Assembly: GCF_003334785.1 (NCBI RefSeq)
Contig: NZ_QOWV01000015.1
Source of the DNA: Escherichia coli
Lineage (GTDB): Bacteria; Pseudomonadota; Gammaproteobacteria; Enterobacterales; Enterobacteriaceae
Direction: 5' to 3' (one strand)
DNA length: 64,000 nucleotides
Shown: positions 56,942 to 62,866 of the stretch, in pieces
Position numbering within the stretch: position 1 is the stretch's first letter
Layout of the letters: every line of letters starts with the position of its first letter
Position numbers and translations under genes: made by a program
Notes under the pieces: generated by a model
The model's database searches: none
The model's input: only the letters and a program-made list of their open reading frames with translations
Told to the model about the DNA's origin: nothing

Positions 56942-57907
56942 CTACAAATCCAACACCAGGCGTTTACCCTTCGCACGCGAACAACAGATCAACATACTTT
57001 GCTGGCTGGCACGCTCTTCATCGCTAAAATATTGATCCCGATGGTCAGCTTCACCTTCCAGTATTGCTGTTTCGCAGGTTCCGCATACCCCTTCACGACA
57101 TAAACATTCCACTTTCGCGGCTTTATTATTTTCAATAACCTGCAAAATAGTCATCTCTTCCGGCACCACAAACTCTTTTCCGGAACGGGCAAGCACCAGG
57201 GTAAATGCATCGCCGGTTTTGTCTTCGATAGCAAATTGCTCAAAGTGCAGCGTATCGGCGGCGATGTCCAGACGCGCAGCTTCACTTCTTACCGCTTCAA
57301 TTAGCGCCTCGGGGCCACAGGTATAAACGTGTGTGCCAGGTTCGATATCCGCCAATAATCGCGCTAATTCCAGTCGTGTTCCGGTTGATGAATGATGCAA
57401 ATGGACTTTCTCAGCCTGCGGATGCTGGACTAGCTCATCACGAAATGCGCAACTTTCTGGATTTCGCGAGCAGTAATGTAGCTGCCAGTCGACGTCGCTG
57501 TGTTGCAGCTCTGCCATGTGCGACAGGAAAGGGGTGATACCAATACCGCCCGCGATAAACAGATGCTTTCTGGCTGAGGGAATTAGCGCAAACAGGTTAT
57601 TAGGCGTTGAAATCGTTAACCGATCGCCCACTTTTACCTGCTGATGCAAAAAGCGGGAACCGCCGCGCGAGTTTTCCTCCAGCCGAACGGCAATCTGATA
57701 ACAAGAGGTGTCATGCGGCGAACTCAGTAGTGAATACGCATTGCTGTACTGGTTATCACCATCGCTCATCTGCACAATGACGTGACTTCCTCCGGTAAAC
57801 GCAGGTAATGGTTTGCCATCGGTTGCCACCAGCGTGAAGCGTTTCACCTGTTCGGTAAGGGGTTCAACCTGGCTCACCTGTACTTCAAACATTTGATAGT
57901 CTGACAT
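56942..57907 (-). CDS. yeaX: Oxygenase reductase subunit YeaX (FNR-like + 2Fe-2S ferredoxin)
   Basis: 321-aa ORF; C-terminal plant-type ferredoxin Cys motif CREGVCGTCE. Confidence 0.88.
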   Translation of the reverse strand: MSDYQMFEVQVSQVEPLTEQVKRFTLVATDGKPLPAFTGGSHVIVQMSDGDNQYSNAYSLLSSPHDTSCYQIAVRLEENSRGGSRFLHQQVKVGDRLTISTPNNLFALIPSARKHLFIAGGIGITPFLSHMAELQHSDVDWQLHYCSRNPESCAFRDELVQHPQAEKVHLHHSSTGTRLELARLLADIEPGTHVYTCGPEALIEAVRSEAARLDIAADTLHFEQFAIEDKTGDAFTLVLARSGKEFVVPEEMTILQVIENNKAAKVECLCREGVCGTCETAILEGEADHRDQYFSDEERASQQSMLICCSRAKGKRLVLDL

Positions 57908-57962
57908 TGCTGTACTCCATCAAAAATCAGCCCAGCGGCGGAAAATACCGCCGCCGATGTCA

Positions 57963-59087
57963 TTAGTCCTTAAACACCTGCGCCAGCAGATTATGGAAAT
58001 GGGCGATACCATGTTCGGAAATGCCACTACCGCTACTGTCGGCCATGATGCGCCCCTGACCACGATAGCCACGCGATTTCAGCCCTTTCTGTACGCTTTC
58101 AACCAGACGTAAATCTTCCGGACGGAACACATCGCGATACCACTCAATCAGCGATTTTTGCTCGTCGGTTAACTCTTCATTGGTGAAGTAAATATCGTAG
58201 TTTTGCAGGGTAGTTTCAGAATCCACCGGGAATTCATAAATGACCGTCATCATCCCTTTGATCGGGGTGACGTTCAGCATCGTGCACGGCCACAGCCAGA
58301 AACCGTGGAATGCCGCATCCGTACCCTCTTCAAATTTAAACGACTGTTCGGACGGTTTGGCGAAACCGTATTGCAGCGTCCAGTTACCGTGCATGGTGTG
58401 CCAGTAACGATCAACCTGTACGGAGTCGGAGAAACCTGGATGCGCCGGACCACAGTGATAGCACTCGAGATAGTTATCGACAATGTTCTTCCAGTTGGCA
58501 GGCGTGCGGGTGGTAAAGCGGGCCGCCAGTTTCAGATCGTGGACTTCCGGGCAGGCTTCCAGCACTTTCGCGCCCAGGCCGGGTAATTGATCTTCTACGC
58601 TGGTGGCGTTGGGGTCCATGTTGATGAAGACGAATCCGGCATATTCTTCCAGACGCACCGGAACCAGTTGCGCTTTGTCGCTATCGAAATTGGCGACGTT
58701 TTCGCAGTTACGTGCATGGGCCAGGTTGCCATCGAGTTTGAATGCCCATGCGTGATACGGGCAGGTAATCACATTTTTTGCTTTTCCTTCACCGCTCAAC
58801 AACTGATGACCACGGTGCGGACACACGTTATAGAACGCGCGCAAAACCTTATCACGACCGCGTACCAGCACGATGCTTTCGCCAATGATCTCACGCGTCA
58901 CATAATCATTGGCATTCGCCAGTTCGCTGCTGTGAGCGACGCAAATCCAGATTTTGGCGAAGACGTTCTCTTTTTCGTGTTCAAACGCGTTCTGATCGGT
59001 ATAAAAACGGGCAGGAATGGTCCACGCCTCTTGCGGGTTAGCGCAAAAATTTTCGGGTAGTACAAAGTCAGGGCTCAGATTGCTCAT
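57963..59087 (-). CDS. yeaW: Rieske non-heme iron oxygenase subunit YeaW (carnitine monooxygenase-like)
   Basis: Start trimmed to MSNLSPDFVLPENF (374 aa); Rieske motif CPHRGH...CPYHAW. Confidence 0.88.
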   Translation of the reverse strand: MSNLSPDFVLPENFCANPQEAWTIPARFYTDQNAFEHEKENVFAKIWICVAHSSELANANDYVTREIIGESIVLVRGRDKVLRAFYNVCPHRGHQLLSGEGKAKNVITCPYHAWAFKLDGNLAHARNCENVANFDSDKAQLVPVRLEEYAGFVFINMDPNATSVEDQLPGLGAKVLEACPEVHDLKLAARFTTRTPANWKNIVDNYLECYHCGPAHPGFSDSVQVDRYWHTMHGNWTLQYGFAKPSEQSFKFEEGTDAAFHGFWLWPCTMLNVTPIKGMMTVIYEFPVDSETTLQNYDIYFTNEELTDEQKSLIEWYRDVFRPEDLRLVESVQKGLKSRGYRGQGRIMADSSGSGISEHGIAHFHNLLAQVFKD

Positions 59088-59118
59088 AGGGATACCTTTA
59101 TCGTTAGGATGATGGCGC

Positions 59119-60735: not shown

Positions 60736-60754
60736 CAAATAAACTGGTTTGACC

Positions 60755-61840
60755 TTAACGCAAAATAATTTTGCAAATCGCGTCGGCAACCTGTGGCGTG
60801 GTGGCATTGCCTTTCATATCAGGTGTTTTCGGCCCGTGAGCAATCACTTCTTCAATTGCTGCCAGAATACCGTTATGCGCTTGCTGGAAACGCTCATCGC
60901 CATTGCCGAGAAAATCGAGCATCATTGCCCCGGCCCAAATCGTGGCGATAGGGTTAGCAATATTTTTCCCGTAGATATCCGGCGCGGAACCGTGGACAGG
61001 CTCGAAGAGCGACGGGAAAGTGCGTTCCGGATTCAGGTTGGCGGATGGGGCAATGCCAATGGTGCCGGTGCAGGCCGGGCCAAGATCGGAAAGGATATCG
61101 CCAAACAAATTGGACGCCACCACCACATCGAATCGTTCCGGCTGCATCACAAAACGCGCGCAGAGAATATCAATATGCTGCTTGTCCCAGCGGATCTCCG
61201 GGTAATTCTCGGCCATTGCTTCCACTCGCTCATCCCAGTACGGCATGCTGATGGCTAAACCGTTCGATTTAGTGGCAGAAGTTAGTGTCTTACGTGGACG
61301 GCTTTGCGCAAGTTCGAAGGCATAACGCAAAATGCGATCGACACCACGGCGGGTAAATACCGATTCCTGAATGACGACTTCATGCTCTGTACCTTCATTC
61401 ACTCTACCGCCGAGCGAGGAATATTCGCCTTCGGTGTTTTCCCTGACCACGTAAAAATCGATGTCGCCAGGCTGTTTTCCCGCCAGCGGGCAGGGAACGC
61501 CAGGAAAGAGACGAACCGGGCGCAGGTTGACGTACTGGTCGAATTCACGACGAAATTTCAGCAGCGAACCCCACAACGAAATATGGTCCGGAACGGTATC
61601 CGGCCAGCCGACGGCACCAAAATAGATGGCGTCGAAACGGCTAAGTTGCTCATGCCAGTCGTCCGGCATCATTTTACCGTGATGGCTGTAATACTCGCAG
61701 CTCGCCCACTCCATTTGCTCAAAACTCAAGGCGAAGCCCCAGCGCTCAGCGGCAGCCTGTAACACGCGAATCCCTTCAGGAAGGACTTCTTTGCCAATCC
61801 CGTCTCCCGGGATCGCAGCAATACGCATCGTTTTCATCAT
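60755..61840 (-). CDS. dmlA: D-malate dehydrogenase (decarboxylating) DmlA (YeaU)
   Basis: 361-aa ORF, isocitrate/isopropylmalate dehydrogenase family. Confidence 0.9.
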   Translation of the reverse strand: MMKTMRIAAIPGDGIGKEVLPEGIRVLQAAAERWGFALSFEQMEWASCEYYSHHGKMMPDDWHEQLSRFDAIYFGAVGWPDTVPDHISLWGSLLKFRREFDQYVNLRPVRLFPGVPCPLAGKQPGDIDFYVVRENTEGEYSSLGGRVNEGTEHEVVIQESVFTRRGVDRILRYAFELAQSRPRKTLTSATKSNGLAISMPYWDERVEAMAENYPEIRWDKQHIDILCARFVMQPERFDVVVASNLFGDILSDLGPACTGTIGIAPSANLNPERTFPSLFEPVHGSAPDIYGKNIANPIATIWAGAMMLDFLGNGDERFQQAHNGILAAIEEVIAHGPKTPDMKGNATTPQVADAICKIILR

Positions 61841-61942
61841 TGGGTTCTCACTTCCTGACCATCAAAATTGACAACATCACCATCCTATAATTGACTGAAA
61901 AGGAATTAATCCCCGTAACTGGTGAAACATAAAACACGAATC

Positions 61943-62866
61943 ATGAATAATTTACCGCTGCTGAATGATTTGCGCGTCTTTATGCTGGTGGCTCGCCGGG
62001 CTGGTTTTGCCGCCGTGGCGGAAGAACTGGGCGTTTCACCGGCGTTCGTCAGCAAGCGCATCGCCTTGCTGGAGCAAACGCTAAACGTGGTGTTGTTACA
62101 CCGCACCACCCGCCGCGTCACCATTACCGAAGAAGGAGAGCGGATTTATGAATGGGCGCAGCGGATTTTGCAGGATGTCGGTCAGATGATGGACGAACTT
62201 TCTGACGTGCGTCAGGTGCCGCAGGGGATGCTGCGTATTATCAGCAGCTTTGGTTTTGGACGACAGGTGGTGGCTCCGGCGTTATCAGCGCTGGCGAAGG
62301 CGTATCCGCAACTGGAATTACGTTTTGATGTGGAAGACCGACTGGTCGATTTGGTCAATGAAGGTGTCGATCTCGATATTCGCATTGGCGATGACATCGC
62401 CCCTAATTTAATCGCCCGCAAACTGGCGACCAATTACCGTATTCTCTGCGCGTCGCCGGAATTTATTGCGCAACATGGCGCGCCGAAACATTTAACCGAT
62501 CTTTCTGCATTGCCGTGCCTGGTCATTAAAGAGCGCGATCATCCTTTTGGTGTCTGGCAATTACGCAATAAAGAAGGCCCCCATGCGATTAAAGTCACCG
62601 GCCCACTGTCGTCTAATCATGGAGAAATTGTCCATCAGTGGTGTCTCGATGGGCAGGGGATTGCTCTGCGTTCCTGGTGGGATGTTAGCGAAAACATTGC
62701 CAGTGGTCATTTAGTGCAAGTGCTACCGGAATATTACCAGCCAGCGAACGTCTGGGCCGTTTATGTTTCAAGGCTGGCGACGTCAGCGAAAGTGCGGATA
62801 ACGGTAGAATTTTTACGCCAGTATTTTGCCGAGCACTACCCGAATTTTTCACTGGAGCATGCCTGA
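61943..62866 (+). CDS. dmlR: LysR-type transcriptional regulator DmlR (YeaT)
   Basis: Start trimmed to MNNLPLLNDLRVFMLVARRAGFAAVAEELGVSPAF (307 aa); divergent from dmlA. Confidence 0.88.
   Translation: MNNLPLLNDLRVFMLVARRAGFAAVAEELGVSPAFVSKRIALLEQTLNVVLLHRTTRRVTITEEGERIYEWAQRILQDVGQMMDELSDVRQVPQGMLRIISSFGFGRQVVAPALSALAKAYPQLELRFDVEDRLVDLVNEGVDLDIRIGDDIAPNLIARKLATNYRILCASPEFIAQHGAPKHLTDLSALPCLVIKERDHPFGVWQLRNKEGPHAIKVTGPLSSNHGEIVHQWCLDGQGIALRSWWDVSENIASGHLVQVLPEYYQPANVWAVYVSRLATSAKVRITVEFLRQYFAEHYPNFSLEHA

Follow-up and report, generated by a model that had tools for sequence, protein, structure and literature searches.

The 64,000-nucleotide stretch of Escherichia coli DNA considered here (contig NZ_QOWV01000015.1; the whole stretch is referred to as the window) carries, between positions 56942 and 62866, the genes for a Rieske oxygenase (yeaW), its reductase (yeaX) and a BCCT transporter (yeaV), next to those for a D-malate dehydrogenase (dmlA) and a LysR-type regulator (dmlR). 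Why do an oxygenase for quaternary amines and a D-malate unit stand side by side, and can the ensemble still work as a pathway? The answer put forward below is that the region is, in all likelihood, the form that the aerobic carnitine catabolic cluster carR–mdh–bcct–cntA–(msadh)–cntB takes in Escherichia, in a worn-down state. The wider setting is medical: in human gut metagenomes cntA is carried mainly by E. coli, and trimethylamine (TMA) is the precursor of trimethylamine N-oxide, a marker of cardiovascular risk. The literature already covers the enzyme with its specificity and structure, as well as the orthology of the cluster. What is added here are the truncation of yeaV, a three-state polymorphism of the locus, deletion scars left by msadh and a shared 13-mer; these are useful details, short of a system of a new type.

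The window comes from the E. coli chromosome, and its positions 54000–64000 are 100% identical to E. coli JKHS016, the only one of the ten best matches without a mismatch over this span, and some part of the span is found in every complete E. coli genome searched (5,426/5,426). In the annotation of this identical strain by the Prokaryotic Genome Annotation Pipeline (PGAP), the same gene names appear, namely yeaX, yeaW, yeaV, dmlA and dmlR. Open reading frames and homology place all five genes where a first-pass annotation of the window had put them, with position 56942 falling exactly on the yeaX stop and 62866 exactly on that of dmlR. The gene identities, catalytic residues, cluster orthology, deletion and population frequencies given below are all based on sequence.

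The oxygenase gene, yeaW (cntA; 57963..59087, minus strand), encodes the 374-residue oxygenase subunit of a Rieske-type carnitine monooxygenase. Its product matches crystallised CntA from Acinetobacter baumannii (pdb 6y8j) with 73% identity (E = 5.7e-196, 654 bits), whereas the next solved Rieske oxygenase reaches only 116 bits; the GbcA model scores YeaW at 153 bits against a cut-off of 670. The residue roles established for CntA (PMC7948474, PMC10952381) can be mapped directly. The ligands of the Rieske [2Fe-2S] cluster (Cys86/His88/Cys106/His109 in CntA) correspond to C89/H91/C109/H112 in YeaW, the mononuclear iron triad (His208/His213/Asp323) to H211/H216/D325 and the bridging Glu205 to E208. 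Tyr203, whose π-cation contact holds the trimethylammonium group, corresponds to Y206; an aromatic Tyr at this position marks group Va Rieske oxygenases, while group Vb has Asn (PMC7948474, PMC10952381). The six residues of the carnitine pocket (Tyr225, Phe258, Asn270, Tyr295, Tyr315 and Phe319) and a Cys pair are likewise identical, so that 17/17 of the cofactor and substrate-pocket residues compared are shared. By these residues and scores, YeaW belongs with CntA among the group Va Rieske oxygenases. The first-pass annotation had thus identified the genes and the carnitine monooxygenase type correctly, and the other Rieske subfamily that it had allowed for did not turn up. It was too cautious in holding that substrate specificity cannot be read from the sequence: the complete set of CntA residues is kept, and assays have been published. 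Purified E. coli YeaW/YeaX cleaves L-carnitine to TMA (PMC9508527), and for orthologous CntA proteins, including that of E. coli, both carnitine and γ-butyrobetaine are good substrates (cited in PMC9508527; PMC7948474).

Two details of this gene remain to be mentioned. A longer, 414-residue reading frame that starts at a TTG and extends to 59207 is an over-extension, as both the CntA alignment and PGAP begin at ATG 59087. Codon 46 (58950–58952) encodes Ile in this strain and Ser in K-12, BL21 and O157; Ser is found here in 22/25 orthologues, those of Acinetobacter among them, and S46I is private to this strain. Together with an overall sequence divergence of 27%, this substitution is what sets YeaW apart from CntA.

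The adjoining yeaX (cntB; 56942..57907, minus strand) encodes the 321-residue reductase of the system. FAD_binding_6, NAD_binding_1 and a C-terminal Fer2 domain (plant-type 2Fe-2S) follow one another in a single chain, which matches phthalate dioxygenase reductase over its full length (pdb 2pia; E = 2e-56), is 52% identical to Acinetobacter CntB and is identical to the K-12 protein. On this domain evidence, YeaX is the phthalate-dioxygenase-reductase-type (class IA) partner of YeaW. The pair therefore resembles CntA/CntB (EC 1.14.13.239; pdb 6y8j, 6y8s, 6y9d) in iron ligands, bridging Glu, π-cation Tyr, Cys pair, substrate pocket and type of reductase. No NCBIfam model scores above its cut-off for YeaW, YeaX or DmlR; the assignment of these three relies on PDB matches, residue checks and orthology, and for DmlR also on the PGAP name. 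YeaX evolves faster than its neighbours, with 86% identity to the E. albertii protein as against 95–98% for YeaW, YeaV and DmlA, and with a ratio of nonsynonymous to synonymous substitution rates (dN/dS) of ~0.07–0.08 as against ~0.01–0.03 for the other genes.

The D-malate genes are dmlA (60755..61840, minus strand), which encodes a decarboxylating D-malate/tartrate dehydrogenase of 361 residues, and dmlR (61943..62866, plus strand), which is divergent from it and encodes a LysR-type regulator of 307 residues. DmlA exceeds the cut-off of TIGR02089 (565 against 470 bits), shares its protein accession with K-12 DmlA and is 71% identical to Acinetobacter Mdh over its full length. DmlR is 46% identical to Acinetobacter CarR, again full-length, carries the PGAP name DmlR and finds its best NCBIfam match, below cut-off, in TtdR. 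A GTG at 61922 merely extends the dmlR open reading frame upstream, and the gene is taken from 61943.

The relation between the two gene sets was examined by scanning one genome per species for CntA relatives and locating their neighbours by tblastn. The order lysR<, mdh>, bcct>, [hyd>], cntA>, [msadh>], cntB> is found in 52/64 loci with a CntA at least 59% identical. These syntenic loci include Escherichia, Citrobacter, Xenorhabdus, Shimwellia, Acinetobacter, Psychrobacter and a Neisseriaceae genome, and the window itself has the divergent LysR regulator and the decarboxylating D-malate dehydrogenase adjoining bcct–cntA–cntB. With the operon of Acinetobacter baumannii (carR, mdh, bcct/Aci01347, hyd, cntA, msadh, cntB) it shares the order and orientation of five genes, the full-length form of YeaV being 54% identical to the Acinetobacter BCCT transporter. 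The orthology of the two clusters has already been published, and the Acinetobacter pathway has been reconstituted: carnitine is split into TMA and malic semialdehyde, which the enzyme MSA-DH (malic semialdehyde dehydrogenase) converts to D-malate, and this goes on to pyruvate and CO2 through Mdh (PMC11353897). D-malate is therefore an intermediate of the route. Judged by synteny and orthology, dmlA and dmlR are the mdh and carR orthologues within one ancestral cluster leading from carnitine through malic semialdehyde and D-malate to pyruvate. The adjacency to dmlA and its regulator pointed out in the first-pass annotation is real; the implication that the two sets merely adjoin falls short, as they belong to the same ancestral pathway.

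That two unrelated modules, yeaVWX for the oxygenation of quaternary amines and dmlRA for the use of D-malate, came to adjoin by chance is accordingly highly improbable. Such a view could draw on a terminator-like hairpin between dmlA and yeaV, and on the fact that E. coli DmlA and DmlR have been studied only for growth on D-malate/tartrate (cited in PMC11353897, PMC6452873). It has to contend with the five-gene order and orientation kept from Escherichia to Acinetobacter and Psychrobacter, with the presence of an orthologue for every gene in the reconstituted pathway, and with a 13-mer common to the upstream regions of both units.

The 13-mer, TTCGTGTTTTATG, occurs at 60644..60656 (minus strand) in the dmlA–yeaV spacer, upstream of yeaV, in a block with hardly any variation among Escherichia, Citrobacter and RIT691. 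A second copy lies at 61928..61940 (minus strand), upstream of dmlA at the dmlR end of the dmlR–dmlA intergenic region, where the core GTGTTTTAT is conserved across Enterobacteriaceae. No other exact copy exists in the 64-kb window, for which the expected number is 0.13. At both sites the core is conserved in Escherichia, Citrobacter and one related genus, and an ATTAA-containing box follows ~30 bp downstream. This arrangement suggests that TTCGTGTTTTATG is a candidate DmlR operator shared by the dmlA and yeaV units and tying them together. The terminator-like hairpin (60714..60736, minus strand) is situated 3′ of dmlA and consists of a 10-bp stem followed by a T-run; it is invariant in 10/10 aligned enterobacterial spacers (60736–60714 in the window).

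The cluster differs from its Acinetobacter counterpart in several respects. The window has neither hyd nor msadh, and the 5′ end of its transporter gene is gone; hyd, the acylcarnitine hydrolase gene, is missing from every enterobacterial locus examined. The mdh–bcct spacer is 155–250 bp long and contains the terminator-like hairpin, compared with ~20–57 bp in most Acinetobacter loci, and E. coli laboratory strains show no growth on carnitine. Closer relatives are the msadh-containing clusters of Citrobacter and Xenorhabdus, which have the same six-gene order and a dmlA–yeaV spacer with the same terminator and conserved boxes; unlike the window, they keep msadh between cntA and cntB.

By analogy with Acinetobacter, the intact system would work as follows. 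YeaV would import L-carnitine or γ-butyrobetaine. YeaX, with FMN and its plant-type 2Fe-2S cluster, would pass electrons from NADH to trimeric YeaW, whose Rieske cluster and mononuclear iron would hydroxylate C4 of the substrate; the product would then fall apart into TMA and malic semialdehyde. This semialdehyde would be oxidised to D-malate by an aldehyde dehydrogenase, and DmlA, under the LysR regulator DmlR, would decarboxylate D-malate to pyruvate. In the window this pathway appears to be doubly crippled, by the loss of msadh in the Escherichia lineage and by a later 225-bp deletion in yeaV. The compact yeaVWX unit described in the first-pass annotation is, in this respect, no longer intact.

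The deletion in yeaV is evident from several lines of comparison. What is left of the gene (59119..60600, minus strand) corresponds to codons 44–536 of a BCCT transporter and is open only from TTG 60564, so that the reading frame spans 59119–60564 (minus strand) while homology continues to 60600. PGAP flags yeaV as a pseudogene, 'incomplete, missing N-terminus', in the identical strain as well as in K-12 MG1655 and BL21(DE3). The product scores 969 bits against the 647-bit cut-off of NCBIfam PRK09950, yet covers only profile positions 56–536 of 536, leaving 1–55 unmatched; by tblastn, residues 43–536 of the 536-residue form align to the window. Pairwise alignment with O157:H7 shows a single clean gap of 225 columns at ~60601, with the junction ATGCAAA/TTTTGT at 60600..60602 (no strand; 1-nt ambiguity). 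The missing 225 bp comprise 96 bp of leader, including the ribosome-binding site AGGAGA, the ATG and codons 1–43. The first hydrophobic helix (TM1) falls within residues 1–43 and can be aligned with solved BCCT structures, with DddT from residue 14 and with CaiT from residue 27. A complete 12-helix YeaV with its own start and ribosome-binding site is thus lacking in the window. An in-frame stop lies upstream at 60612–60610, and the first possible starts, TTG 60564 and ATG 60549, are both without a preceding Shine–Dalgarno sequence.

The direction of the change is clear. The long form of yeaV is present in E. albertii, E. whittamii, Escherichia sp. E1V33, Citrobacter, Xenorhabdus and Acinetobacter; since all outgroups carry it, the short form is a derived deletion, and an insertion giving rise to the long form is ruled out. 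The allele of O157:H7 and B1-type strains, which is 98.6% identical to the window in nucleotide sequence over the locus and has the same five genes, keeps the 225 bp with leader, ribosome-binding site, ATG and TM1 and encodes YeaV of 536 residues, while K-12 and BL21(DE3) carry the deletion. The difference G107V between the window and O157 is not a lesion, Val being ancestral and Gly specific to O157. Literature searches for the yeaV truncation returned no relevant description. In the leader of O157:H7 (locus L002, 6331–6427; absent from the window), two small conserved stem-loops, CTGGCAAAAGCCAG and GGGC-N6-GCCC, precede the ribosome-binding site directly; their stems are kept and their loops vary across Escherichia and Citrobacter.

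The consequences for expression can be approached through the promoter. Manual reading combined with conservation yields a candidate yeaV promoter, TTGTTT and AATAAT separated by a 17-bp spacer, whose −10 hexamer, made up of window positions 60603–60601 and the first 3 deleted bases, is probably cut by the deletion; besides the leader, ribosome-binding site, start codon and TM1, the deletion would thus have damaged the promoter of yeaVWX. The oxygenase genes in the window, themselves intact, are probably poorly expressed and without an importer of their own.

A different reading is that the 481-residue YeaV of K-12-type strains still functions as an 11-helix transporter, its translation beginning at TTG 60564 or ATG 60549, with the operon transcribed from the upstream sequences that were retained. 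The frame is open without secondary lesions, it differs from O157 by 1 nonsynonymous versus 21 synonymous changes, the conserved upstream block and its 13-mer are still in place, and ~1,450 genomes keep the allele. Against this stand the lack of a Shine–Dalgarno sequence at either start, the presence of TM1 in every solved BCCT structure matched and in all orthologues, the pseudogene call by PGAP, and reports that neither carnitine monooxygenase activity nor cntA transcription was detected in BL21 or K-12 (PMC11353897). On balance, a functional short YeaV is unlikely, and loss of the transporter is taken as the preferred explanation.

How widespread the lesion is can be seen from counts over the 5,426 complete E. 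coli genomes. The yeaVWX genes are present in 4,383 genomes and the 225-bp segment in 2,931; by subtraction, ~1,450 genomes, including K-12 and BL21, carry the deletion allele and ~1,040 are without the cluster. An evenly spaced sample of matches agrees with the subtraction, 12/39 having the short span. The E. coli locus thus exists in three states: intact, transporter-truncated and absent. In the cluster-less strain FCI5 (locus L004, 7058–7252), only small fragments are left between rnd and leuE, which correspond to window positions 56699–56965, 60730–60766, 61320–61492 and 62699 onward. They include the dmlA terminator, a 173-bp internal piece of dmlA (61320–61492) at 92% identity and the 3′ end of dmlR; this distribution implies that three separate deletions occurred, with decay between them.

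The second lesion, the loss of msadh, is older and more widely spread. In 41/52 syntenic loci msadh lies between cntA and cntB. It is absent from the loci of all four Escherichia species sampled, from four Citrobacter-type loci, from two Xenorhabdus and from Shimwellia; neither the window nor any Escherichia locus examined gives an msadh match, and the yeaW–yeaX spacer is 55 bp long. In the msadh-less Citrobacter loci, the cntA stop is followed immediately by GGCTGTAA, the last ~8–10 nt of msadh with its stop codon (a scar read in loci L015, L017, L018 and L057, ~11126–11145, by comparison with L009 and L012, ~12588–12600). In Escherichia, the yeaW stop codon instead abuts the counterpart of the Citrobacter msadh–cntB spacer with its hairpin. 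Because the two junctions differ, msadh must have been lost more than once. The genes that remain are constrained: all five have dN/dS values of 0.01–0.08 when the window is compared with O157, Escherichia sp. E1V33, strain E69 and E. albertii. By this measure, the msadh-less cluster is maintained by selection in the genus Escherichia.

What such a shortened cluster might be kept for has two possible answers besides carnitine catabolism. In the first, the physiological substrate in Escherichia is γ-butyrobetaine, the end product of the anaerobic Cai pathway, which would be cleaved to TMA and succinic semialdehyde; the latter would be oxidised by GabD/Sad, making msadh dispensable. CntA and YeaW use γ-butyrobetaine about as well as carnitine (PMC7948474, PMC9508527), and E. 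coli GabD is 62% identical to Acinetobacter MSA-DH (PMC11353897). The loss of msadh at clearly different junctions in Escherichia and Citrobacter, its absence from some Xenorhabdus and from Shimwellia, and the purifying selection on the remaining genes would also fit. Since dmlA and dmlR stay beside yeaVWX in every msadh-less lineage, which argues that D-malate is still made and carnitine is still a substrate, this proposal is held to be doubtful, if worth keeping in mind.

In the second, proposed for msadh-less clusters in PMC11353897, the cluster trims intracellular carnitine as a compatible solute and does not serve to gain carbon. The lack of growth on carnitine would agree with this (PMC11353897), as would very low transcript levels in gut metatranscriptomes (bioRxiv 10.1101/2021.01.25.428109) and the positive expression changes of ~2 for yeaV and yeaW across growth-phase transitions in O157:H7 (PMC2241611). 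The strains tested for growth all carry the yeaV deletion, and the conserved linkage to a D-malate dehydrogenase would be left unexplained; trimming of carnitine is therefore regarded as rather improbable. The preferred interpretation remains a carnitine catabolic cluster that has lost parts of its equipment.

The published physiology has to be read in the light of these allele states. BL21, B and K12 do not grow on carnitine, and BL21 extracts have no carnitine monooxygenase activity (PMC11353897); as K-12 and BL21 carry the deletion allele, these negative results are silent on the intact one. In O157:H7 Sakai, which has the intact allele, the positive expression changes of yeaV and yeaW mentioned above were recorded in glucose minimal medium (PMC2241611), and the metatranscriptomes contain very few cntA transcripts overall (bioRxiv 10.1101/2021.01.25.428109). 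A tentative suggestion, which may well prove wrong, is that the published lack of cntA expression and growth applies only to the deletion allele of K-12, BL21, probably B and the window, in which the start and first helix of the transporter are gone and probably also the −10 element of a DmlR-controlled yeaVWX promoter. An inducible pathway from carnitine or γ-butyrobetaine to TMA may then operate in the ~54% of E. coli whose allele is intact. If this were true, metagenomic cntA counts, which come mostly from E. coli, would need to be split by allele in order to predict TMA production. In any case, the existence of three locus states, of which laboratory strains carry the truncated one, means that neither the negative physiology of K-12/BL21 nor counts of cntA presence should be generalised to the species.

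Several observations weigh against the account given here. The truncated yeaV frame is open for 481 codons without further lesions, and the deletion may be recent or its product may keep some function. As msadh is absent in all E. coli, the failure to grow on carnitine need not stem from the yeaV deletion. A review table lists K-12 and BL21 as positive for conversion of carnitine to TMA (PMC6200775); some of these positives clearly go back to work with recombinant enzyme or to K-12 DNA serving as a standard. With consensus sigma-70 scans, the dmlA–yeaV spacer yields no promoter, whether in the deleted or in the intact allele. The putative DmlR box draws on one repeated 13-mer and phylogenetic footprinting; TTCGTGTTTTATG was looked for without success in Acinetobacter and is mostly missing from Xenorhabdus, so that it would at best be an enterobacterial operator.

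Some smaller features of the region complete the picture. The yeaW–yeaX spacer contains a GC-rich, terminator-like hairpin with a T-run (57932..57957, minus strand) directly upstream of the yeaX ribosome-binding site. Its position is homologous to that of the hairpin in the Citrobacter msadh–cntB spacer, both with and without msadh. Covariation is weak (2/7 pairs compensatory; covariation term +0.22), and a functional RNA element is not claimed. Elsewhere in the genus and beyond it, yeaV of E. whittamii (locus L006, 8448–9966) aligns as two pieces (residues 1–190 and 214–536), as does dmlA of Citrobacter sp. wls619 (locus L014, 7041–8091; residues 1–151 and 160–359). These interruptions suggest frameshifts or small indels, and with them further independent decay of the cluster. 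Finally, the end of the window (~63927–64000) lies within a terminal repeat belonging to an IS186/IS421-type element that has inserted into yeaR. BL21(DE3) and JKHS016 have the same insertion annotated, and yeaR is intact in the cluster-less FCI5.

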